A stretch of DNA of 38,872 nucleotides from Chrysochromulina tobinii (lineage: Eukaryota). The stretch spans positions 1 through 38,872 of the forward strand of contig JWZX01003296.1 of assembly GCA_001275005.1 (NCBI GenBank), given 5' to 3'. Shown here one piece after another: positions 12,949 to 38,713 of the stretch (its first letter is position 1; each line of letters opens with the position of its first letter). The notes under the pieces are model-generated. The model had not been told where the DNA came from. It saw nothing but the letters and a program-made list of their open reading frames with translations, and did not search any database. A program made the position numbers and the translations under genes.

Positions 12949-15900
12949 CTAGCGAGCGCCACGGGCGAGAGGGCTGTGTTGGGCGCCACGGGCGAGAGCG
13001 TGCACTGTGTGGCCGCCTCGCGAAGCAGACGCACCACCTCGCCGAAGGCGCTGAGCGCGGCCTCGTTGGGCACGACGGCGGCGGCGTATCTCGGGGAGCC
13101 GCTCCATCACGCTGCAAAGCAGCAGCGTCGCCGAGTTGCTTCCAGTGCGCCCGACGGCCGTATGGACCGCTGTGATGGCCTCTCCCGATAGTGATTGGTT
13201 GAGGCGCCGCTTGAGCCGGCAAGCTAGGAAGCCCCGCGCGGCTGCCTGCAGCCGTGTCGCGCCGTTCGCCCGTCGGCTCAGGTAGCGGCGGGCAGCACTT
13301 TGCAGTTTCGTATGCTCAACGGTCAGGCCGTAGTCGTCGGGCGTAAAGTGACGGCGCACGCCAAGACTCTCCAGCAGCCTTGGAAAGAAGGCGTGGCAGG
13401 CTGGATGGAGGCAGTGGAGGCGAGGGTTGAGTGAGTACGACTGGAGAGCTGGCTGCGAGGTGGGCACGAATTCTGCCAATGTGCGGCTGTTGTAGGTGCC
13501 GCAGCGCGGGTTGTTGCAGGAATCTGCACTGAGCTGCGTGCTGCAGCACGCCATGCAGAGGTAGCGTGTGGGCCCGGCCTCCGCAGGCTCAGCCTCGCTC
13601 TGCTTACTGAGCGCCACTTCGGAGGGCAACCTCATTACCACACCGCCCAAACTGGTATGCTGCCCTCTCTCATCTTGAGCACTGACGGGCACGCATCGCA
13701 AGCTCGCTAGGTCTTCCTTCCATTGTGGCTCGATCTGGTCCCAATCATCCGAATCCGCGAGTGCGGCGTACAGTGCCACCACCTGCTCTATGGACGGCTG
13801 GAACTCCTCTTGGCCCGCATCATGGCCCGCATCGGCCGCCGCGGGCGGCGAGATGGCACGCAGCTGCATGAGCAGCACCTCAAGTGGAACTCGCTCGTTC
13901 CAGCCTAACATGTCCGCGAGCCTGGGCGGAGCGAGTGGGGCATCGGACTTGAGCACCTGACTAGAGGCCGACACCAGGAAACGTTTGGCGTAAGGCTGTA
14001 CGGCGGCGCACGGCGCAAAGGGAGTTCCATGCACGCCCGCCGGCCAGGGCACGCCCGGCTCGCCCTGCGCCATCACAGGCAGCTTCAGATCTCCCAGGAG
14101 CTCCACCACAAAGTCCTCACTGCTCATCGGTGCCACGTGTAGCCGTTGAGCGGGTACCCGCACGGGCTGTTCGCCAAAAAGGGTCGCGTGGTTGAGCACA
14201 AGGCAGGCCCAGACAGCCTCCGAAGCCTGGCCCGACTCTACTCGCCGCGCCGCCGCCAGGATGCCGCGCCGACTGTCCATGCCAAGCCGCTCGAGCTGCG
14301 CCGTCGGAACGGTGCTACGCAGCGTGGCATCTGGCGCAAAGAACACAGCGTCGAACCCCTCCTTGTTGACCTCAGGCGCCACGTTCGACACGGTATCTGG
14401 ATGAGTCAGCTCACTGAGTCGAAGCAGTCCTAAGGGAGAGTTGATGCAGGGCAGATTCTTCAACGCGTCGAAGGCGCGCTCGCCACCTTCGCTGACGAGG
14501 CTGTCCAAGTTGCTGAGCATATGCGCGACAAACTCGCCGGCCTCGGGTACGGTCTGCATGAGCGAAGACAACCGCGGGAAGATCTCTTCGATGTAAAAGT
14601 CAACCGTCTTCAGCTGCGGCACGCCCAGCAGGCCGAGCAGCCGCTCCTCATCGACATCCGCGCACTGCAGCCATCGCGCTCCAGCCGGGCCGGCCAGACC
14701 CTTAAGGCAGGCACCGACCGAGAGCCACCACGCTGGATGCGGCTCATCCACACGTCTCGCACCGAGCAACTTTGGCAGGAGTGACACTTGTCGATGCCAT
14801 CCCGATTCTGCCTGCACTGCCTCAGGTATAGTGAACACGGGTAAATCAAGGATGGCTGCTTTCAGATTGTTCACCACGAGGCGCGAAAACCCTCCGCTCG
14901 TATTCACCGAGCTGAGAATGGCAAGCAGCTGCGGATAACAGTGCAGTACCCAACGTCGCAAAGCCGCACCATTCTCTGGAGCGGAGACCCAGGCACGAAG
15001 CTCTGGGACACACTCACGCAAAAGGGTGCCGACCCACACGTCGAGCTGAAGATTCTTATCCTCACGGCTGTCAGCGTCCATTCGCTTCACAGCCATCAAG
15101 TTGGAGCACAATGCACCCTTCACCCTGACTGGGTCGGAATGGCCAGGCATGCCAGAGGTCGTCTCGTGTGCACGGGCGCTCGCAAGCTTAGTGACAAACT
15201 CGAGGAGCTTCCCTTCGCCTACACCGTTCATGGCGTGTGTGTCGACCACACGGTGCACCTGATAGAGGAATGCGTCCACCCAGCCTGTTGGCTCTGAAGC
15301 CTCTCTGGTGAGCCCAATATCAGTGAGAAACTCTGGGCTCAGCAGTGCAAGACGCGGAGCCTGGTTGCCTCGGAGATCCCGCTGGAGTTGGAGTGTGGCC
15401 CAATGCAGCTGCCACGGCGCCTGGGGCGCAGCAAGGATGGGCAGAAATGGCAGACCTGAAAGCTCGTGCATGTGAGGGTTTCCAGTGATTAGGAGCGGAG
15501 TGTCGAGAGTGATGTGCTCGTATAGACAGAAGAGCAGCAGCTTGACTCCCGAGATGCGGCTGAGGTGTTCCAGCCAGGCCATCTTGCCAGGCCACTGAGC
15601 TTCGGTTCTGCGAAAGAATCTGCGTGCTACCTGCGGATCGATCTGCTTGAGCGTCGACAAATCGAGCGCCTGCAGTGCGTCTTGGAGCAGTTTGAGTACC
15701 GGCGAAGGCAACACCACTTCCAGTACAGCCACGCCCGCGCGCGAGAGCTCGTCGTTTGCCGTCTGCCGAAGTGCCCTCCTGATGCCATCATTGGGCAGAC
15801 CTTGCTCTGCTCGCAGCATCACCTTTGGCTCGTCACGTGCGGGCGAAAGCCAGCGCTCGCGCCCAGGCAGGACCTTGAGATGTACAATGCGGCGATACAC

Positions 15901-18900
15901 TGCCTTCACCATGCTTTGAAACGACTCCGCGACCTCCGTTGGCCATAGCGTGAAGAAGTGTCCCGGCGGCACCATTTCCGCTACCTTGACCAGCACCGCA
16001 CTGTAACACAGCGAGACAACATCCGAGATCAGCAACTGGTTCCAGAGGGCCTTGACGGAGGCTTCACCCTGCAGCCCATCGCGCATCGTCCAGAGCTTCT
16101 CGCGCCCATCGATCACTTCGAATGAGCCGTTCACGTGCACCGGCAGGCCAGTCTTAATCGGCAGCGGGAGGGACGAGAAGGCACGGCCCTCGATAGGCTC
16201 TTGCTCAAGTTTAGCAGCCGCCCCCACCCACGGAATCAGCTTCAGACCAAGCCCCTCGTTGCTCAGGCACAAGGTACGCATCTCTTCCGTCATCGTCAGC
16301 GCATTGCAGACTAGCCATCGGCTCTCTGATATTGGCTGCTCGGGCGCAATTGGAGAGGTCACGCGCATCGTGAGCATACGACTCTCGATGATCGCTTCTG
16401 CCGTCACTAGATGTTGATACAGCTGCTCGTGCTGGGGCATACTCTGCACGCACTGCGCAACAGCACGCGCGCCGCTTGCCCACTCTTCCTGACGCTCGAC
16501 ACGGAATCGGAGCTTAGTATGGAAATTACTAATGTTGCTTCGGGTAGGCCGTCCTCCCGGGTCGCGTGCGTAGACTTCAATGCGGCGCACATTCTTCAAG
16601 AAGAGTAATATCTCGGGGCCACGCGCGCGCAGACGATCCAACAACTGATGCGCCTTGTCGTGCGAGTACGGGCCGCCTAGCTTCGATCTTTCGCTAGCGC
16701 GCCGAAGCGGCAGGCGTAACAATGTGCCGCGGTACCGAGAGCGCATATCCCAGTGAGTGTCGCCATCATCACCACCGCCAAAGAGGCAAAGTGGACTAAA
16801 CTGGTCAGCAAAGTCGGTAGGGCTTGAAGCTGCGTCGCCATCATAGTCGGCACCGACTGCCAGTTTTACCTCAGTGCCGCCGTCAGCAAAGGCGCGCCGG
16901 TGGGGATCAAAGAAGAGCCAGCGGTGGTTGCTGAGTAAGGCGGGAGTGTCGGTCAGGTGATACATGGAGTTGATTCCTGGGCGGAACAGACCGCTGGTGG
17001 CTCGCCCAGCCTGGCTATCGGACCGGATGTAGCGGATTGCAAAGCAGTCTTCATCATCCGGAAGGCCAACCCCGTTATTGTAGCAGTAGAGACCCGGTCC
17101 CTGCGACGACTCATCACCTTCGTATACGTGCTCCTGAAGCTGAGGCCACAACGACAGCGTGCCGTGCTGCACGCCCTCTTCTTCCAGCACCAGACGTACG
17201 ACGGTGGCGCCCGAATCGTCTGCGTGTTGCAGCAGCTCGTCCAGGACTGCATCACCATCAGGGTACTGGCCAAGTATTCCTTTGATCTCATTGAGGATGG
17301 AGTCCGACATGAACGCCTCGTCAGTACCCTGTCGATCTCCCTGAAGCAAGGCGCGAATCGTCTTCTCCGCCGGCTTCTCTTCAAACGGCACCGTGCGAGC
17401 CTCAGAGACTGCCCATTTAACATCGGCGGCATCAAAGGCTTGACGCACTCCGAGCATGTCCATGACTGTCTCACAGTGCTGCTGCAGCCACGGTGGCAGC
17501 TTGAAGAGGTGCGGCATGAGGTTAGCGCCGCCGCACCCGCTCTTTGCGACGCGCAATGGAGCGACGAAGCAGAAGCGATCTTCGAGCCACACACACGCAG
17601 TGACTCCCACCCTTTGAAGGTGCGCCGAATCTTGGTCAGAGGGCTGCTCAGGCTTCAAGCTGCACAGTACACGATCCAGAGTCTCGTAGAGCTTCCTCAT
17701 GTGCCCGCTGAACTCTGTGTGTTGCGCCCGATTCAGATCGTCCACGGAGACCAATGCCATGGCTTGAAGCTGTGCCAGTAAGACTGACAAAGGTGGCGGC
17801 TGGTTCCACCCGAAGAAACTTTTCACCTCGGCAGGCAGCGGCGAGAGATGGCAAAGCAGGCGTGTGGACGCGGAGACGAGTGGAGCATCACTCTCAGGTC
17901 GGACGTCGTACGCTCTGGCACGAGGCGACGAATGTCTCTCCTCAGGCAAGGGCAGGACCCCACGGTCGTCGACACGGACTGGAAGCCACTCGATACTACA
18001 CATCTCCGATCCGAATGCCTCAAGAGCCATCGTGGTGTCAGTCTCGCCACAGACGAGCAAAGTGTCATTGCAAATATGCTGCAGGAGAGCCGCTGAGAGA
18101 TCGCAATCTCCGTCCATTTGGCTGCTCTCGATAGCCAGGTCCACGACAAATCGACGCGTCACGCTGGTCCTCAGACCGAGTGTCTCGAGGGCCTGAAGCT
18201 CGGAAGGATCCTCGCACGTCAGCAGCCACCTGAGCTGGATGAAGCGCGCGTGACAGGTTGCCTTGCTCAGGGCTTCTCCCAGTGGAGTCATGAGGATGCA
18301 CTTATGAAAGAGCTCCGAGGGACGGTGCAGTGAGCCGTCTTCCGACGGCACAAAGGCCATCTCCATCAGTGCTGCTTCAATCTCGGCGCCCATCTCTCCC
18401 TCTTTGAGCTGTGTCAAGCTACGCAGGACCAGGTGCATCACGTGATCGCTGAGCTCTTGTGGCAGATCATCGATCCTAGGCAACACGTGCTGCATGTAGA
18501 ACGAGCTCAACTCAAGCTTGGGCACATTGAGATTATGCAGGAGTTGGTTGAGTTTCACGTCCGTGACACAGAGGCCAACCGCGGGGTTTGTGAAGTTGCG
18601 TAGAAAGATGACCCTCTCGTGGCCAAGCTTGCAAAGCTGATCGAGTAACTTGGCGTTGAAGCTGTCGACGCCGACATCGACGGGCGGTAGCATGTGCACT
18701 TCCAGATCGATGGATGTGAAGTCCTCAGCAAATCCTGCGACCTGGAATATAGGTAGCGAGCGTACAAGGCGCGATTTCGTGAGCACATCATACGAGGCGC
18801 CCACGTCCTCCTGGCCAGCAGTGCACGTTTGCTCATGCGCGATCACCACCTCGTATGTGCTCACGAAATCGCAATGGTCGCATTGGAAGATCTCTTCGCC

Positions 18901-21694
18901 GTCCTCTGCAGGACGAGCATCAGACAGGGCATTGCGAAAAACGTGGACGCCTGATGTCAGGAAGTCGCGCAGGGAGTGGCGTTCAGCAGGTGTAGCCTCG
19001 ACGAGCCGTTGCTCTGCGAGGAGCGCCGACGTCCTACCTGATGCTGCGCTGTCCCGATCTGCTGCTGCATCTAAAGGCGTGGAGCGCAGCGCCTCTTGCA
19101 GCGCTTGAAGTGCCGACTCGACGCTCAGCAGCGGTGTACAAGCAACCAAGTCAGGGTGCATCGAGAGGGCCTCCGACTGATGCGCCTGGAGCCGATGCGT
19201 GTACCACTCCTGCACTGCCGGGTGGAGATACACACAGCCGAGCCGCTCCAGGCATCGTTGGAGAAGATCACTCGAGCCGTCCGGCACCTGCAGCATCGTT
19301 GTGTGGCCGAATGCGTGGGCAGTCCCGTCGGTGGAAGGGATCATCGGCCAGGAGTTGAACACGTCGGGGACAACACTCGCTGCATGATGGCGTGAAATAA
19401 AGGCCCACACGCGTGCGAGCTCCGCCGCGGAGCGTCCGTCCTCCACGTCGTCGTCATCTGCCAGTCGCTGATGCGTCTGGTGCTCCCAGTGTGCCGGTAG
19501 CACTAAGCGCGGCAGCAACTCCAGAGGCAACTTTGGCAGCAAGCTAAGCTTGCCACTGAAAGCATCGACGTCGACGAGCTCGTGCAAGTGGGCCCAGAGC
19601 AGAGAGGTAGGATGGACAGACATCACGAGGGCTGGCGTCAGGCGCAACATCAAGTCCTCGGCCGAGCACAACACGACGCAGATTGCGCTGGATGCGAAGC
19701 AGGTTCGGTTGCCGTTCCTCAACGAGATGAGAGGCAGCTGGCTCACCTCGTCGTGGATGCGGCGCGCTTGCTCCTTCTCCTCTGCTGAGGACGCCGAGGC
19801 TGGGTCGAGTGCTTCACTGCAAAGATCTGAAAGACAGTACTGAAGCAGCTCTTGGCACTGCGCATCGTTGAGCTCGCCCTCCCAGCCGCTGTGCAGGGTC
19901 ACAAGATGGTTGCGCACCACAGCAGGGGTGGCTTTTGCGATCGAGTTGGGGTTGGCGCCGCTCCGTGAGCTTGTGTGCACACAGGCGCTACGCAGCAGCA
20001 TCTCCACTCCGGGCGGCGGCTCGACGATCGGAAGCTCGAGGAGCATTAGCGTCGAGCGCAACTCATGGTCCATTTCGGCCGTGGGGAAGAACGCGGCGGT
20101 GGGTGCGATCCACTGTCCGGCGCCTTTGCCGCTCTCGAACCGAAGACATTTGCGCTCGAGCAGCAGCACGTACCTGTGGAAACGGGCGGCATGAAGGCGT
20201 GAGGGCAGAGCCCCTCGGGGGCTGGCTGCGTGAGGGTTCGTGATGCACGATGCGTTACAGCTCATCGACTAGCTGAGCCCAAGGCTCCGCTGGTCGAGCA
20301 TGCGGCCAGATCTCGTAATACTCCGACCAAGTGTTCGTGAGCTCTTGCGCCGCCTCGATCAAGGCCACGTAGCACGGTGCCACCACCGACGCTAACAGAG
20401 CCGCGTTCCAGTTGGCTTTGAGCAAGGCCAATCCGACGCCCGACGTGTCGGTCCAGACGTCGCGCCGGCTGGTGCTCAGTTCGAAGAAGCCATTGATGTG
20501 CACTGGCAGGCCTGTGTGCGGCGGCAGCGGAAGCGTGCAAGAGGGCCGGCCTCGTACTGCGAGCTCAATGCGCGACCGTTTGAAGCTCGGGCCAGCCCCC
20601 TCGAGCTGACGGGTAGGCTGCTGCAGTCGTGCGGCCACGCCACCCCATGGCAGCGGCCTGAGCCCACGGCTGAGCACGTCTTGATCCACGCTCATCTCCA
20701 GTGCTTTGCCGCCACCAAAGGCTTGCGCGACCAACCAGGTGTACGCCTCGCCTTCGGCGCTGCCGGCCTGGGACAGTCTCACGCTCAAATGATCCAAAAA
20801 GTGGTGCACGCCCAGCCGTGTGAGGTCCTGCGTGGCTCGTCTGTCCAGTAGCTCTCGTAAGTGGGCTCTCGGCATTGAATCGGCGGTTCCACAGGCGCAC
20901 GTCTTCTGCTTGGCGAGCAGCCGAGGCGCCGCCTCGCCGACCCGCCATTCATAGACTTCGACTGTGTGCACGCACTGCAGGAACAGGACGAGATCCGGCA
21001 GCGACTCCACGAACTTCTTGAGCAGATCGTCGGCGTCGCTCAGCGAGTACGGCCGCGGTGAGATGCCTTCACCAGCCGAGCCGCGAACGTGGGCCCTGGT
21101 GCGCAGCGGCAGCCGAAAGATGGTCCCGTTGAATTCTTTGGCCGGGTCGCAGCCAAAGATCCGCCATGGCGCGAATTGATCAGGCGCACTGTCGACGTGT
21201 CGCTGGTGGAGGTTGAAGCCAATGCCGGTGTCGCCGTTGGCGAGGTGCTTCTGGCTGGGGTCAAGGAACAAAAGACGCTTGCCAGTCAGAAGACCCGGGC
21301 AGTCGGTCACATGATAGCAGCTATTGAACCCCAGCCCAAACTTGCCAGTCTTGGTACGGCCGTCCGCATCATTTTTGAGCGAGTTGCCCACGCTCTGAAT
21401 GCTAGCGAGGTCCTTCTCGGTGAACCTTTCGTCGTTGTACGTGCAGATGGCTGGGCCCTGGAATGAAGCGAGGCGACCCTCGAGAAGTAGCTTGCGGTCC
21501 GGATGTTTTCGACGGTCGAGCATGACCTTGAAAGTGCTTGCGCCCGCATCGTCTGCATTTTGCACCATCTCTTTGAGTAGCCCATCCTCAGGGTAGTTGG
21601 CGAGACATTCGCGGAGGCGTGCGCAGAGGTCGACGCGCTGGCCAAACTGGAACATGTCCTCAAGAGGAGACTCGCGCCGAGCCCGCTGAGACAT
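12949..21694 (-). CDS. Sacsin-like protein with two HSP90-like (GHKL) sacsin repeats, zinc-binding inserts and IQ motifs (exon 1 21694..20259, intron 20258..20174, exon 2 from 20173)
   Basis: FGQRVDLCARLRECLANYP, KEMVQNADDAGAS, YNDERFTEKD, TGKFGLGFNSCYHVTDCP, GTIFRLPLR and LPPHTGLPVHINGFFEL are sacsin repeat motifs. A second repeat lies at about 17300-15900. The 85-nt GTAACG...CACAG intron joins the two ORFs in frame (DEL/YVLL). Confidence 0.88.
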
Positions 21695-21934
21695 GGTTCG
21701 CCGCGCTCGTGCCCTTGGCGCGGCGAGCCGGAGGGACGGCGAGGGACGCCGGGACGGCGCGTTTACGCGCGGGCGGGCGGGCGGCTCTTCTGATGTCGTG
21801 CAGAATGTTCCGCAAAAAGCAACAAGTTTTCTTGCTTGCTTGTGTCCAGCTGTTGTCTTTCATAGGCGCCGTGCCGGTGTGAAACCCGGTTTCGGCCGCG
21901 CTCTCGGTTCAAGCTGCCGAAGCCGCAGTCAAAC
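21695..21934. promoter_or_regulatory. Probable bidirectional promoter between the divergent sacsin-like and TBC genes
   Basis: 240-bp gap between head-to-head start codons. No specific elements identified. Confidence 0.45.
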
Positions 21935-31549: not shown

Positions 31550-32751
31550 TCACGCGAGCTGCGGCTGCGCGGAAGCCACCACCACTCCGACGGAGGGCCC
31601 TTGATCGCTGTCTGCAGTTGCAGCGGCGACATTGACAACGCCCCGATCCTCCTCGGAGAAGTCCGATTCCCTCAAGCCGCGCTCCTCGACGAGGATCTTC
31701 CCATTGGCCACGTAGCCGACGTGCGTAGCCGCGATCGTCTCGCAAAAGGCGCGATCGTGCGACACGACGACGACCGCGCCTTCATACCGGCCGATAGCGT
31801 CGAGCAGTGCCGCGATCGCCTCCACGTCGAGATGATTCGTCGGCTCATCAAGCAGGATCACATTGTACGGCGACAGACAGAAGGTGGCGAGCGCCACGCG
31901 CGCCTTCTCGCCGCCCGAGAGGTCACGAATCTGGCGGAGGGCCTTCTCACCCACGAGGCCGAGGGAGCCCATGATGGTACGGCACTTCTCTTCTGTGATA
32001 GAAGGGTCGGCCACACGCACGGTCTGCGCCACGTACTCGCACGCACCCATATCCTGCGGCAGGTCCTGAGCCAGGTCCTGTGCAAAGACGCCCAGCTTGA
32101 GGCGCTCGTCTTCGAAGCGCATCGAGGGCTTCTCGAGCTTGATCGTTCCGGAGAGCGCCTTGAGGATCGTGGACTTGCCCGCTCCGTTAGGCCCGCGCAA
32201 GATGAGACGCATGCCCTTGAGGACCTCCAGATTCGCCTCAGTGATGATGTCCTGCTTGCCCAAAGGGTGGCGGATGTTGGCTTTGCGAAGCGCGAGAGGG
32301 GCCATGCCGCAGGAAGGTGGCTTCGCCAGCGTGAGGACGGGCTTCCTCTGCTCGCCGATGAGGAGTGCCTGCGCCGCCGCCTGCTTGATCGCGAGCTTCT
32401 CGAGCTTGCCTTTGCGGTCGGCGGCCTGGCTGGCCTTCGAAGCCTTGGCACCCATACGACCGATAAAGTCCTGCATCCGCTTGCGCTCGCGTTCCTGCGC
32501 CTCGATCGTCGAGCGGATGCGTGCTTGCCGCTCCTCACGCTCTGTCAGGTACTTGTCGAAGCTCATCGACTTGTAGAGCTCAAGCCGACCTCCCGCCACC
32601 TCGGCGATCGAGTCGGCCGCTCGGCGCACGAACTCGGCGTCGTGCGAGACCACGAGCACCGTACCGTCATACTCTCCGACGTCTGCAACGTGGCACCGAC
32701 TCGATCCCAGTCACAGTCAGTTATAGCGCCAGGGCAGCGGCATCATCAGAC

Positions 32752-32802
<51 letters not shown>

Positions 32803-33623
32803 GCAGCAGCAGCAGCAGTAGCGGCAGTCGCAGTGCTTGGAGGCTCAGTATCTCGGTGTTCGAGAGCGTACGCACAGTTGCCGAGCCAGCGACGCGCGGA
32901 CGCGTCGAGATGGTTCGTAGGCTCATCCATGATGAGAAGCTCGGGCTCGCTCAGGAGCAGGCGAGCGAGCCCGATGCGCATCTGCCAGCCTCCCGAAAAG
33001 GAGGAACATTTGCTGTCAAACTCCTCTGGCTTGAAGCCCAAGCCCTGCAGTACCTTCGAGACACGAGCCTCGATGTCGTAGCCGCCGCACGCCTCAAACT
33101 CCTCTTGCGCCTTCTCAAGGCACGCGAGCTCCTCCTCAGAGCCCAAGACGCAGTTCTCGACGGCCGCGTTGAGGGCCTTGGTCGCAGCTTGGAAGCGCGC
33201 CATCCGAGACACGACTTCTTCGCGCACAGTGTTGTCCGATCCGGAGACGGCCGTCTGCTCTAACATGCCCATGCGGAGCGTCGCGTCGACCAGGATCAAG
33301 CCCTCTTCGAGCTTATCGCCTTTCGCACTCGCGGCGATGGCACGGAGCAAGGTGGACTTTCCACAGCCGTTCGTGCCCTGAATAGCCCATCGCGACTTGG
33401 GCATGATGTCCCAGTTGACGTCGAGGATGAGCGGCGAATTGCCGGCCCAGACATCAACCTCTTTGCACACGATGGCAGCGCCGCCGGTGTCGACTTTCAT
33501 GCACGGCAGGGACACACGCGAAGCCGTCGACCGTGTATTCACGCTGGCATAAGCGCCTACGGCGTACGCATCAACCGTGCTGAGCGCTGTGAGGAAGGCA
33601 CATCTGAAGAAGATGCCTTGCAT
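31550..33623 (-). CDS. ABC-F family ATPase, probably plastid-targeted (exon 1 33623..32876, intron 32875..32683, exon 2 32682..31550)
   Basis: Two NBDs (GTNGCGKST/FSGGWQMR/LLIMDEPTNHLD and GPNGAGKST/LSGGEKAR/ILLDEPTNHLD) and no TM domain. The splice gives WLGN|YVGEYDGTVLVVSHD. Bipartite-type N-terminus. Confidence 0.92.
32751..32826. repeat. Compound (GCG)n(GCA)n trinucleotide microsatellite inside the ABC-F intron
   Basis: Directly visible, and lies within intron 32683..32875. Confidence 0.9.
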
Positions 33624-33812: not shown

Positions 33813-35110
33813 TCAAAGGAAGCGCCAGAGAGCGCACTCGACGCCGGCGCCGGGGCCCATGGTGATGAACATGCCATACTCACCGCGTTTGGCGATCTTC
33901 TCGCGCAGCAGCGATTCGTACGCCCAGAGGAAGGATCCGCTGGACATGTTGCCCATCGCCCGCAGTGAGTTGAGCGAGTGCCGGATGGCGTGCTTCGAGA
34001 GCCCGAGCGAGTACATGACGCAGTCGAGCACCTTCTTGCCGCCCGAGTGGACGACCCAGTGCGCGATGTCCTCCTTACGCAGCCGGTGCTTCGCCAGCAG
34101 CCGGTGCACCATGCCAGGGATCTTGAGGCCCATCAGGTAGGGCACCTGCGGCGAGGCCATCAGCATGCAATCAGCATGCAATCAGCATGCAATCACCTGT
34201 GATGAGGGAGGCCATCAGCATGCAATCAGGTAGGGCACCTGCGGCGAGATTGTGAACGAGTACTTGTGATACTCCTCGAGCCACGTGTAGCAGAGGGAGT
34301 CGAGCGAGTCGGGCAGCAGCAGCGACTCGAAGCCGTAGAGGGCCGGCTTGGGCGCGGCGTTCGTTGAGGCGATCGGACGCTCGGGCGTTGGGCAGAGCAG
34401 CACGGCCGCGGCAGAGCCATCGCCGAAGAGCGAGTTGGTGAGGGCGACGGCGAGGTCGGGCTTGCTGGCGTCCCAAACATAGCCGGCCGAGACCACCTCG
34501 CATGCGAACATGACGGCGGGTACTCCCGGGTTCGCCTCGGCCCAATGGGCGGCGGTTGCCATGCAGTTGAGCCCGGCGTGGCAGCCCATGCCCACGATGT
34601 CGACGCGCTGGATGGTCGAGGGCAGCCGCAGGTGGTTGGCCACGTGGGCGGAGAGGCCGGGAGAGGAGAAGCCGGTCGTGGTGCACACGACGAGGAAGCC
34701 CACCTGATGAGGGGTGCAATCAGGTGCAATCAGGTGCAATCAGTGGTGCACACGACGAGGAAGCCCACCTGATGAGGGGTGCAATCAGGTGCAATCAGGT
34801 GCAATCAGTGGTGCACACGACGAGGAAGCCCACCTGATCGAGCGCCACACCCGCCGCCTCGCACGCCTGCGGGATGGCGGAGGCGGCGAGCTTCTTCGAC
34901 CAGCGTAGGTGCTTGGCGAGCAAGCCACCCTGGGTCACCCCACCAGCACGCTGCTCGGCACCGATCTCGGCCAGCCGGCGAGACTCGATGTGGGCAGACG
35001 AGTAGATGGCTCGCATGCGAGGGTCGTCCACGCCGAGCAGGTTGGCCACCTCGGCTTGTGTGTACCGCTCCTCCGGGGCGGCGGTGCCGATCCCGACGAG
35101 CACGGCGCGA
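33813..35110 (-). CDS. dpgA: Type III polyketide synthase domain, DpgA-like (3,5-dihydroxyphenylacetyl-CoA synthase); C-terminal part of the fusion gene, introns 34704..34833 and 34146..34238
   Basis: Catalytic triad intact: DIVGMGCHAGLN (Cys), HWVVHSGGKKV (His), GNMSSGSFL (Asn). Also VGIGTAAP..YTQAEV, QGGLLAKH, NSLFGDGSAA, PQVPY and ITMGPG, which closely follow actinobacterial DpgA as I recall it. Confidence 0.88.
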
Positions 35111-38100
35111 GGCTTGTACTTGGCCTCGTACAGCAATCCCTCGGCGATGCGCTCCGAGCGGAGCGAATCCTCGTGTGCGCCGCCGCCCACACGTGCGTCG
35201 ATGAGCATCTTGGCGAGCGTGCGGGCGAGCGCTTGGTCGGTGCCGAGCTTGGCGGCGAGCTCGAGCGCCGCCGTGAGCGGTGTGGGCGAGAGGGAGAGCG
35301 CGAGTCCCCATTCGAGCGCGCTGTTCGCACTCAGTCGCCCATGGAAGAGGATGACTTGCTTCGCGCGCGCGGCGCCCACTGCCTCGGTCAGACGCGTGCA
35401 GCCGCCCGCGGCAGGCACGAGGCCGAGGGAGGTCTCGGGCAACCAGAAGCGCGCCCCCGGCCCGACGAGGCGCACGTCGCACGCCAGTGCCCACTCGAAC
35501 CCGCCCGCGACGGCGGCGCCCTCGACGACGGCGATCGAGACGAAAGGAGCCTTGGCAAGCGATTCGAAGACGCGCTGGCTCTGGAGCTCGAGAGCGTCCA
35601 TCGCGCGCGGGTTGGAGACACGTTCGAGGTCGGCGCCGGAGCAGAAGAAGCGAGGGTCCGATGACTTGAAGATGACGCAGCCGCACCGTTGGGCTGAGAG
35701 CATCGGGATGAGACGCTCGAGGGCATCGAGCATTGGGCCGTCGTACGCGTTCGCGTAGCTCGGCCGGTTGATGGTGACGATGGCGAGCGCGCCCTGGCGC
35801 AGAAGCTGCAGCGAGTGCGTGCCGAGTGCATCGGGCGTCACGTAGCGCGAGTCCTCCTCGAGTGCCCGCGGCAGCGCCGCCTCGGACGCTGGCACGATCA
35901 GCGCATTGAGATGCTGCTGGAGCAGGGGGAGCGCCGACTCGGGCTCGAGCTGTGGAAGACGCACGAGGAGCCACTCGGTGCGTCGTCGGAGCTCGGCCAG
36001 TTCAGTCAGCCCGGCCACCTCGCGCAACCATGCAGCGGATGCAAAGGGGCGGCGGGCCGGTTCGGTGAGCATGCCGCCGCCGACGAGTAACGCCTTGTCG
36101 GACAGTTCGGCCGCCGCGCTCGCCATCGCCTCGCCGAGACAGTCGACGCGCGTGCGGCCGACGGCGAACCCGCCGTCACGGTCGCATCGCCGCTGGCCGA
36201 GGGCGTGCGCGAGGTGAGCGTTGGCGAGGGCGGTGCGACCTCCCGCCTGGCCAGCACACGTGAGAGAGCGCCTGGCGCGTCCACCTGGGTGGCAAGTCGC
36301 TCGAGCCGCGCCATCACATCAGCCTCGTCTTCACACGGCGGCGCCTCGAGGACGCCCCACTGGACGAGGGACTCGAGGTCGGCCGCGGGAGTCGCGAGGA
36401 GCACGCGCATGAGGGATCCGATGCGAGCAGAGCGGCCGAGCTGCCACACGCGCGCGCCCGGCACCATTTTGGCTTGCCAGCCAGCGAGGCGCACACACAC
36501 TGCCGCCGAGGCCGCCAGCCGGTGCTTGCATGCAAGGCACAGCTCGAGCGCGAGCGCGCCAAGCTCGCCGCGCATGAGCGCCGTGGTGGGCACTTGCGCC
36601 GTGAGCGCGTCGAGCGCGTCGAGCGCCGTGGCGAACGCCTCCCTCGAGGCGCACGTGTTGTCGAGCCGGAGCAGGTGTCCGCTCTCTTCGTCGAGGTCGA
36701 GGAGCACCCCGAGCGTGGGCCCGAGCGGGGGAAGTGGGGGAGGCGCGCCTGCACCCATCGCCGAAGGCCCAAGCATCATCTGCGCGGAGGTGCCATGCTC
36801 GAGTTTGGCCATCTCCACCGCCTCGAGAGTGGTCAACGCCTCGGTGAGGGCCCCGAGCGCCTCCGCCGTTAGTACGCTGCCCGTCAGCCGAAGCCGCACC
36901 ACACACCCGAGGCTGCCCAGCGGCTCGGTACTCACACGCACATTCAGCGGCGCGCCGCCTGCGTCCGCCGTGCCAGCCTCGGTCGTCTCAGCCGCGGCTC
37001 CCTGGGCGGCGCGGGCGCCCGCCCGCGCCCATTCGAGCTTCCATTGCCACGCCTCGGTCGGCATGATGAACTGGTCGGGGAAGAAGGAGGCGAGCTGTTC
37101 GAGCTGGGCCGACGAGATCTTGGACGAGAACGCATTCACCGGCGGGGCCGCCTCGACGACATCCACTCCTCCTTCTCCCCCTCCTTCTCCGGCGTCCGCG
37201 CCGCTCGTGGCGGCTGCTGGCGCCGTGTGCCACACTTTGAGCATCGCCCGGAGCTCCTCGGGGCGCGCCATCCAGATGGTATCCTGGAGCAGGTAGCGGC
37301 AAAGGAGAAGGGAGGCGCCGTGCGCGGCGCGCGCGAGCAATGCGCCGAGCCACGCGCCCACCTCGGCCGCGGGCGCGTCCGCCGCCGCCGCCTTGGGCGC
37401 CACGATCCATTGTAGCGCGCCTACGCGCAACGCCTCGGTGGTGCCCAGTGGGGAATCCTGCGCCATGAGCGCCATCGCGACGCCCGCGCCCACGTGCTTC
37501 GCGAGGCGGAAGGCGAGGGTTCCGGGGAGCGTGCCCGAGGCGGCGCCAAAGTCGAGCGTGACGCTGGGCGCCGCCGCGCGCAGGTCACACGCGAACGCGA
37601 TCTGGAGCGCCGTCGCGCCGACCGATCCGGTGCCCACGAGGACGCACACGGTGGGCAGGGGCAGCGTGTTGAGGCTGGCGAGTGCCTTCTCGAGCTTGGT
37701 TAGCCATGAGACGAGGCGCATGTTGAAGTGGCCGTTGGCACCGCCGACCGCGTGCAGCGCGAGCAGCTGCTGCGGCATCGGCAGCCGCCCCGCCCTCTCG
37801 GACGCGAGCATCCGGAGGACGAGGCACGTGGGCAGGGGCGTCACCGGTGGCGGCGAGCGCGGCTAGCCCGCGGTTGAGCTGCTCGAGCACCTTGCTGAGC
37901 TCGTCGAGGGAGATGAGCTCGAGCTCGGAGGGCATCGTGAGCACCCACGCCTCCTCGGACCGGTGCACCTCGTACTCGAGCGGCACGAGAGGTGGCAGCG
38001 GGGCGTGCGCGGCCGCCGCTCGCCCGACCGCGTCGGCGATGACGAGGGACGAGACGGCGAGTGAGTGGCCGATGACGTCGGTGCCCGCGACGGACGAAGG

Positions 38101-38713
38101 TCTGGAGCACGATGCGCCGGAGCAGCGCGAGCGGCACATTTGGCGGCACGGGCAGCCGCGCCGCGTGGAGCGCCGCCACGGTGGGGCACAGCGCGTGCAC
38201 CACGTGGCAGTCGAGCAGTTCGTGCGTGCCCGCCGGCTGCGTGCGCCAGAGCAGCTTCTGCGCGCGCAGCACGCCCGCGTGGAGGGCGAGCGAGGCGAGC
38301 CACCAGATGGGGAGCGGCACGTACGGCTGCGTCGCGCCCGTCGCCTGCGACGCTGGCCGCGCCGGCAGGCACGTGTCTGCCGTCCCGAGCCGGAAGTCGC
38401 ACGCAAGCGCGAGGCTGAGCGACAGGTCGCAGAGCGCGCCGTCGAGAGCGGCGACGAGCAGGAGGCTGCGCTTCTGCAACTTGGCGAGCGCGAGCTCGTA
38501 CCGCTGCAGCGCCGCCGCCGTGCACACGGGCACGACCAGCGGCCCGCCGCGGATGCACAGCACGACCTTGGTGGACTTGTCCCTGTCGAGCTGCTTGCAC
38601 AGGCGCTCGACCGTCTCCGTGTACTCGACGAGCGAGGTCGGCGGCTCTACCTCGATGACGGTCGTCTCCGGCGGCACGAGTATCGACTCGGGGTCGGGGC
38701 CGGGCGTCTCCAT
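33813..38713 (-). CDS. Multidomain gene: three DpgB-like crotonase-fold domains + one catalytic enoyl-CoA hydratase (DpgD-like) + DpgA-like type III PKS (about 1500 aa); two unresolved +1 frame breaks, and the 5' end may lie outside the window
   Basis: Repeated crotonase motifs LALACDFRL, IAFACDLRAA and LCLACKHRL. The fourth domain has FFCSGADL, AVAGGFEWALACDVR and LPETSLGLVPAAGG and runs in frame into DpgA. Likely 92-nt intron at 36193..36284. Frame breaks near 38095 and 37838. Confidence 0.78.
34146..34238 (-). repeat. 93-nt intron with a (tgattgcatgc)n core flanked by a 24-nt direct repeat ctcgccgcag|gtgccctacctgat
   Basis: The direct repeat spans both splice junctions, the intron contains an in-frame stop, and removal restores ISPQ|VPYLMGLK. 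Confidence 0.9.
34704..34833 (-). repeat. Intron made of two identical 65-bp units, each a 26-nt copy of the next exon + (tgattgcacc)x3 + cctcatcag
   Basis: The exon-junction sequence recurs at 65-bp spacing (34701, 34766, 34831). Removing 130 nt restores LDQ|VGFLVVCTTTGF. Confidence 0.9.

Follow-up and report, generated by a model that had tools for sequence, protein, structure and literature searches.

In bacteria, DpgA-type polyketide synthases (PKS) serve to build a ring found in vancomycin, and in the searchable literature DpgA chemistry is known from bacteria only, mostly as a step toward antibiotic building blocks. Could a eukaryote carry such chemistry on a single polypeptide? The question is raised by a gene on the minus strand of contig JWZX01003296.1 of the alga Chrysochromulina tobinii (assembly GCA_001275005.1), the whole of which, 38,872 nucleotides, is referred to below as the window. 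A first-pass annotation had described the gene as four crotonase-fold domains (D1–D4) followed by a type III PKS with an intact triad, and its coordinates and quoted motifs were all found to be present in the sequence. The reading that we favor, at a probability of about 0.6, is that one algal gene would combine a DpgA-type condensation with dehydration by a fused hydratase, and would have arisen by fusion of a horizontally acquired bacterial E-dpgA-dpgB cluster, E being a hydratase encoded beside dpgA in bacteria other than actinomycetes. The gene and its domains are as follows.

33813–38713, minus strand: whole gene, three exons (38713–34834, 34703–34239, 34145–33813), 1,558 amino acids with three assembly indels corrected
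38008–38656, minus strand: D1, DpgB-like crotonase-fold domain, catalytic Glu pair absent, residues ~20–235 (NCBIfam, DpgB clade, fold)
37227–37965, minus strand: D2, DpgB-like domain, residues ~250–495 (NCBIfam, DpgB clade, motifs)
36267–36944, minus strand: D3, the crotonase-fold domain that has diverged most, probably derived from DpgB, residues ~590–815 (profile score, fold)
35128–35820, minus strand: D4, intact enoyl-CoA hydratase domain, assigned as ortholog of bacterial hydratase E (motifs, profiles, tree)
33816–35115, minus strand: DpgA-type type III PKS, triad C1334 (34583–34581), H1481 (34049–34047) and N1514 (33950–33948)

The gene runs from the ATG at 38713 to the stop codon at 33813–33815, and appears as six open frames in the window as assembled. 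All four Illumina DNA runs yielded a single 3,685-base contig with precisely three indels relative to the window (38095, 37840 and 36135), and the G missing behind 36135 was also present in RNA contigs from two of four runs. In addition, two other contigs, L123 and L124, which are 99.95% identical to the window across 13,053 bases, contain a stop-free frame of 1,358 codons over the three indel sites, and the spliced L123 copy differs from the corrected window protein by one residue. The three single-base frameshifts are assembly errors, and the five domains lie in one reading frame. Meanwhile, position 35339 is C in the assembly and T in the four DNA runs and L123/L124, with Gly instead of Glu at residue 1125; this C is probably a fourth assembly error. 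The corrections and introns are listed below.

38095: assembly error, extra base (DNA runs, L123/L124)
37840: assembly error, extra base (DNA runs, L123/L124)
36135–36136: assembly error, one G missing (DNA runs, RNA contigs, L123/L124)
34704–34833, minus strand: intron 1, 130 bp, GT-AG, inside the PKS; RNA joint in three of four runs; exon sequence duplicated at both ends
34146–34238, minus strand: intron 2, 93 bp, GT-AG, inside the PKS; RNA joint in two of four runs; 24-bp duplicated flank and high-copy repeat

The gene has no other introns. The earlier description of an intron-containing gene holds for the PKS portion, where both introns are supported by RNA; the joints among D1–D4 are not introns, the breaks there being the single-base errors. 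As exon 1 (38713–34834) contains D1–D4 as well as the beginning of the PKS, the fusion is independent of the splicing model. The proposal of a single polypeptide was borne out by this exon and by a single transcript of Prymnesium parvum (supplement of PMC7284882), which extends from the D1 end as far as the stop codon. RNA contigs of C. tobinii itself reach every domain, one of them crossing the D4–PKS junction. The GC content at third codon positions is 0.88 in the gene and 0.69–0.87 in its neighbors, and the GC content by codon position is similar to theirs. The gene is intact, spliced and expressed in the alga.

The C-terminal domain was identified as a type III PKS by its thiolase fold and its Cys-His-Asn triad, and the model of a close relative matched type III PKS structures. 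With the DpgA model NF042429, window exons 2 and 3 scored 145 and 144 bits, and the named top bacterial matches were all DpgA or DpgA-type PKS (39–45% identity). In a tree with five other bacterial type III PKS as outgroup, the plant and Ectocarpus enzymes being compared by score only, all ten algal-clade PKS rows formed one clade (support 100/100) within the DpgA clade (100/100). Furthermore, of 100 columns conserved among 80 bacterial DpgA, 82 are unchanged in the window, as against 45–57 in the outgroup. At the positions that we take to correspond to the pocket residues of chalcone synthase, the bulky Tyr, both Phe residues and the Ser are the same as in bacterial DpgA. The closest solved structure reached only 134 bits, Ectocarpus PKS1 (PDB 4b0n) 104 bits, and DpgA was absent from the 60 best solved-structure matches. 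These comparisons place the domain in the DpgA clade, and not among the chalcone or alkylresorcinol synthases, as the first-pass annotation had expected.

Crotonase-fold profiles, built from the neighbors of bacterial dpgA, matched at residues ~20–226, ~334–459, ~706–823 and 972–1198, corresponding to D1–D4. In the AlphaFold model of a near-identical 921-residue relative, the N-terminal part was predicted as three separate crotonase-like folds (mean predicted local distance difference test score 61, predicted template modeling score (pTM) 0.43, 18-row alignment), and every Foldseek match listed for this model was a crotonase-family structure. D1 and D2 fell inside the DpgB clade with a support of 100/99, albeit on long branches, and D2 has in common with bacterial DpgB the motif LPGx-xxxRLAKxVG and, in the first of the catalytic positions, a Gln. 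D3 scored 24.7 bits with the DpgB-type profile, against 9.5 with E and 9.0 with the generic one, and the DpgB-type profile gave the highest score for D3 in all three species compared. These values suggested that D3 is probably a third DpgB copy, so that the DpgB likeness originally claimed for D1–D3 stands on clade membership for D1 and D2 and on the best profile for D3. The catalytic Glu pair is absent from all three, as had been noted, except that D3 retains one of the two residues. A DpgC-like nature of D1–D3 was considered and dropped, since the DpgC profile gave at most 14 bits.

D4, in contrast to D1–D3, has a complete set of crotonase motifs, namely the oxyanion motif FFCSGADL and both catalytic Glu residues predicted at the outset, E1073 in GGFE and E1093 in LPE. 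Its assignment as DpgD-like did not survive: DpgD was only the 22nd of 72 NCBIfam matches of D4, with 77 bits against the NF042430 cut-off of 400, and the SGADL of the oxyanion motif is VGQDL in 20 of 20 DpgD. D4 scored 245 bits with the profile of E and 74 bits with that of DpgD, and it grouped with E at a support of 100/100, while a D4–DpgD clade was rejected by the approximately unbiased test (p-AU 3e-6), which rules out D4 as DpgD. E was the best match of D4 in five of five donor-type genomes (169–195 bits, next paralog at most 107). By motif, profile and phylogeny, D4 is accordingly classified as an ortholog of E and not of DpgD. The D4–PKS junction, ERIAEGLLY-EAKYK-PRAVL, consists of the last E motif, five residues and the first DpgA motif. 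E is followed by dpgA in the same order at loci L029, L032, L039 and L072, and the junction looks as would be expected from read-through of adjacent E and dpgA genes.

The bacterial source of such a gene was sought among 80 dpgA loci with flanks of up to 7 kb. Since they were chosen as the top 80 among 579 relatives by rank against a query from outside the actinomycetes, the set over-represents the donor-type cluster. The 38 actinomycete loci contained DpgB in 37, DpgC in 34, DpgD in 20 and E in none, whereas the 42 non-actinomycete loci contained the DpgB type in 40, a GNAT-like gene (called from motifs and a weak Pfam match) in 35, E in 11, and neither DpgC nor DpgD; a hydratase of locus L004 initially counted as E had been dropped after the trees. 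The DpgB type adjoins DpgA in 77 of the 80 loci. We also surveyed 121 draft genomes of one uncultured Myxococcota-type class, which includes 'Deltaproteobacteria bacterium UBA796'. DpgA was above the cut-off in 76, with three further fragments, and E was found in 65, of which 64 also have dpgA, these co-occurrences being given as counts because the genomes are kin and share genes. E lies on the same contig as dpgA in 27 cases, upstream on the same strand in 23 and within 300 bp in 8; an example of the cluster is found at L039:6235–9506. DpgC was detected in none of the 121 genomes and, as a positive control, in both of two actinomycetes, and E was not found in any of five actinomycete dpg genomes. 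The dpgA-dpgB-GNAT pathway is therefore near-core in this class. As D4 goes with E, which occurs beside dpgA in non-actinomycete bacteria that have neither dpgC nor dpgD, the glycopeptide operon of actinomycetes is not the right model for the donor. The idea of a transferred bacterial operon thus held as to bacterial origin and failed as to the operon named, the donor having likely been, to judge from trees and gene order, an E-dpgA-dpgB cluster of uncultured Myxococcota-type bacteria; the origin trees were built without cyanobacterial DpgA (Moorea, Roseofilum). No match to the bacterial GNAT-like gene was found in the window or in the proteins compared, with a profile that includes four wrong-frame rows and a search confined to these sequences, the rest of the host genome not being searched.

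Several further features of these bacterial loci were observed. A divergent arginyl/leucyl-tRNA-protein transferase (ATE) gene adjoins E in L001, L024, L027, L028, L029, L032, L034 and L039. In L072, of Competibacterales, a formyltransferase-sulfotransferase fusion (L072:4675–6339) follows E-dpgA-dpgB, and the GNAT-like gene was not found at that locus. L004, L022 and several 'Enterobacterales' loci, titled Klebsiella/Enterobacterales, carry the Myxococcota-type cluster, and the titles are probably placeholders.

How might the fused protein work? DpgA is described as condensing four malonyl-CoA with ring closure from C8 to C3 (PMC6274091), DpgB and DpgD as increasing its efficiency 35-fold (PMC8773403), and DpgC as oxidizing the DpgA product (PMC5132015). 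By analogy, the algal PKS domain would condense four malonyl-CoA and build and cyclize a tetraketide as DpgA does, and D4, with both Glu residues present, would aromatize the ring by removal of water, taking the place of the actinomycete DpgD. D1–D3, devoid of the Glu pair, would not act as classical hydratases but as DpgB-like helpers, binding the CoA-tethered intermediate and enhancing the rate. We consider it somewhat probable that the product would be 3,5-dihydroxyphenylacetyl-CoA or a close relative. As DpgC is not encoded nearby, the product would remain a CoA thioester, to be hydrolyzed or handed to an acyltransferase; for the bacterial cluster, acyl transfer is suggested by its GNAT-like gene. 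On inspection by eye the protein shows no obvious targeting peptide, which makes the cytosol the likely site.

Several observations weigh against the reading of a working fusion of an E-dpgA-dpgB cluster. None of the C. tobinii RNA contigs extends over the full gene. DpgB was the top one of nine NCBIfam matches of D1 and the top match of D2, but at 30 and 49 bits against a cut-off of 140 (NF042431), although three donor-type bacterial DpgB, at 120–125 bits, likewise fell below it. In an unbiased search with D2, the 135 matches other than the top ones had low scores, 72 being best with the generic hydratase profile and 61 with the DpgB-type one. The placement of D3, the only domain without a settled clade, had a tree support of 83/45 and a p-AU of 0.17. 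Donor-type bacterial DpgB has one invariant Glu that has been lost from D1–D3 of the window. D4 may even be dispensable, because E is absent from 15 of 79 dpgA-bearing draft genomes and D4 from shorter eukaryotic relatives. As for the PKS, three full-length orthologs scored 360, 368 and 386 bits with NF042429, below its cut-off of 425; the domain differs at 18 of the 100 DpgA-conserved columns and sits on a long stem branch; the Asn adjoining the catalytic Cys is replaced by His in 22 of 22 algal-clade rows; a variable pocket position is occupied by Gly in the window, by Glu in Cymbomonas and mostly by Ala in bacteria; and the tree leaves an actinomycete sister group possible (p-AU 0.16).

The departures of the PKS from DpgA, namely the stem branch, the sub-threshold score, the His beside the catalytic Cys and the variable pocket, would be accounted for if origin and architecture were as proposed but the product were another one, the PKS having drifted to a different starter or ring and D4 preparing or editing an acyl-CoA starter. 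This explanation, which is the strongest competitor but in our estimation unlikely, gains from the resemblance of D4 to an ordinary active hydratase and from the fact that the donor-type bacterial product is itself uncharacterized. It is opposed by the unchanged pocket Tyr, Phe and Ser residues and by the retention of helpers of the DpgB type, the near-constant neighbor of DpgA in the bacterial loci.

Alternatively, D1–D3 may be decayed passengers or a scaffold, with D4 and the PKS alone functional. Between the algae, D1–D3 have diverged fast (26–46% identity, against 53–72% for D4 and 49–72% for the PKS), their Glu pair is gone, and AlphaFold did not pack them: an internal pseudo-trimer of D1–D3 is not seen in the pTM 0.43 model, which with 18 rows is too weak for a verdict, and the D4–PKS model (pTM 0.64) does not settle their packing either. 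On the other hand, the order of D1–D3 is kept in the haptophytes and Cymbomonas, each domain being nearest to its positional counterpart, and the second Glu is also absent from actinomycete DpgB, which still raises the rate. We regard this alternative as slightly more doubtful than a changed product.

Transfer and fusion of an actinomycete dpgA-dpgB-dpgD set, with D4 as DpgD, is improbable. The possible actinomycete sister group of the PKS and one tree in which D1 and D2 adjoin actinomycete DpgB (87/85) are compatible with it, whereas the DpgB profile of non-actinomycetes outscored the actinomycete one for D1–D3 in nine of nine cases, E is missing from all 38 actinomycete loci and was not found in the five actinomycete genomes, and the scores and rejected clade given above largely refute it for D4. 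Still less credible is a beta-branching cassette, in which tandem enoyl-CoA hydratases and an HMG-CoA synthase would work for a type I PKS: tandem hydratases in modular PKS proteins did occur among the D2 matches (P0276, P0329), but the thiolase-fold domain scored 144 bits as DpgA against 24 as HMG-CoA synthase, and neither an acyl carrier protein nor a type I PKS was present among the 24 open reading frames (ORFs) of the window and 10 upstream that were scanned. A broken or chimeric locus, whether in the form of a pseudogene or of distinct genes fused artificially in assembly or gene prediction, as the three frameshifts might intimate, is already refuted by the independent reads, which read through in all four DNA runs and the two other contigs, as well as by the spliced RNA, the Prymnesium transcript and a third-position GC content near that of the neighbors.

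Relatives of the preferred E-dpgA-dpgB fusion were found in other eukaryotes, as the first-pass annotation had suggested looking for in haptophytes and dinoflagellates. Full five-domain orthologs are encoded by Prymnesium parvum (KAL1522882.1, 1,385 residues) and the green alga Cymbomonas tetramitiformis (KAK3249796.1, 1,331 residues), and across Chrysochromulina, Prymnesium and Cymbomonas all domains are closest to their positional counterparts. There are many environmental relatives, each covering part of the fusion. A shorter form of 821 residues (P0042/P0043) is a fusion of DpgB-like and DpgA parts that lacks D4 and has at least one DpgB-like domain, only the second being clear; one copy of it sits on a 70-kb contig. 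Members of Chrysochromulina, Prymnesium, Cymbomonas, Oxyrrhis and Karlodinium ingest prey, a habit that would fit gene transfer by feeding. Among the shorter relatives, P0044 (887 residues), whose N-terminal part had zero crotonase profile matches, is nearly identical to an Oxyrrhis marina sequence among the supplementary data of PMC7284882, where a Karlodinium relative is found as well. That paper files the Prymnesium, Oxyrrhis and Karlodinium relatives as 'CHS/STS-like' in the first-branching clade, and neither 'Dpg' nor 'hydratase' occurs in its main text. In the gene table for Chrysochromulina tobin in PMC4580454, as far as accessible, a gene with the same N-terminus has a model that skips D3 and the label 'ATP-binding cassette superfamily'. 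The gene is easily missed, because assembly errors break the window copy and this published table calls it an ABC protein. It is not among the type III PKS of Table S3 of PMC4580454, two of whose C. tobin 'type III PKS' entries, together with a third, proved by sequence to be type I fragments.

Compared with the DpgA-DpgB-DpgD(-DpgC) systems of the glycopeptide, venemycin, kendomycin and Xanthomonas META-B clusters, the fusion likewise has a DpgA-clade PKS with Cys-His-Asn, a DpgB-type partner and a second, complete crotonase. It differs in being one eukaryotic polypeptide with two or three DpgB-type copies and E in place of DpgD, and in that DpgC, transaminase, nonribosomal peptide synthetase and type I PKS were all missing from the ORFs scanned near it. 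The uncultured Myxococcota-type E-dpgA-dpgB-GNAT cluster is closer: D4 is assigned to its E, the E–DpgA order and junction agree, D1–D3 score best with its DpgB type, and DpgC and DpgD are lacking in both. In that cluster, however, the genes are separate, a single DpgB with one Glu kept lies downstream of dpgA, and the GNAT-like gene is unmatched in the window. Ectocarpus PKS1 is an algal type III PKS too, but stand-alone and distant. The Steely hybrids of Dictyostelium also have a C-terminal type III PKS in a large eukaryotic fusion, fed by a type I fatty acid synthase/PKS; the Steely1 domain is presumably PDB 2h84. In the algal fusion the partners of the PKS are instead crotonase-fold domains. 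Outside the actinomycetes, DpgA also occurs with DpgB in small dpgA-dpgB clusters of the cyanobacteria Moorea and Roseofilum (PMC6836626), which are unfused; cyanobacterial dpgA is further reported in PMC8086630, and dpgABCD in Xanthomonas in PMC3849588. Open full text, which mostly excludes subscription journals, yielded no publication that describes a eukaryotic DpgA or the present fusion.

The novelty consists in DpgA-DpgB chemistry in fused, eukaryotic form, with a hydratase indicative of an uncharacterized bacterial cluster and not of glycopeptide producers; that it works like DpgA, DpgB and DpgD together, we infer. The finding of a conserved, expressed form in haptophytes that make blooms and in a green alga suggests an aromatic metabolite of plankton that has so far gone unreported, and gene flow from uncultured bacteria to algae is also indicated. 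As a natural single-chain enzyme, it opens the hand-off between DpgA, DpgB and the hydratase to domain deletion, and it may make 3,5-dihydroxyphenylacetate accessible from a single gene. The unusual ring closure of DpgA, according to the review PMC6274091, still awaits structural study. We would venture, only tentatively, a broader view: several unrelated algae, namely haptophytes, Cymbomonas and dinoflagellates, may share one single-chain resorcinol synthase acquired horizontally from a class of uncultured bacteria in which the pathway is near-core, 3,5-dihydroxyphenylacetyl-CoA may supply the acyl group of a family of metabolites, not yet described, that these algae and bacteria share, and the fusion may be a ready model for the action of DpgB.

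The two PKS introns had features of their own. Exact exon duplications of 24 and 31 bp were observed around their AG|GT sites, with a third copy inside intron 1, and short GCAATCA repeats occur inside both. The summed contig depth at intron 2 was about 50,000 against 70 for the gene, and its repeat must thus be very high-copy. The related sequence L122 has neither intron, and both look like recent intron gains. Introners of Chrysochromulina are described with 4-bp duplications (10.1101/2022.06.06.494994), unlike these two.

The genes near the fusion are ordinary eukaryotic ones, encoding ABC-F, actin-like, TBC, sacsin, kinase, TIM and ATG8 proteins, with an MFS gene upstream. The scan of 24 ORFs in the window and 10 upstream revealed no biosynthetic cluster around the fusion gene, nor any DpgC or transaminase, the remaining host genome lying outside this search. 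The sacsin-domain gene at 12952–21859 consists of two long frames (2,439 and 534 residues), a split that may be due to an assembly error or an intron. Finally, an apparent intron with runs of GCC/GCA triplets was observed at 32686–32874 in the downstream ABC-F gene.

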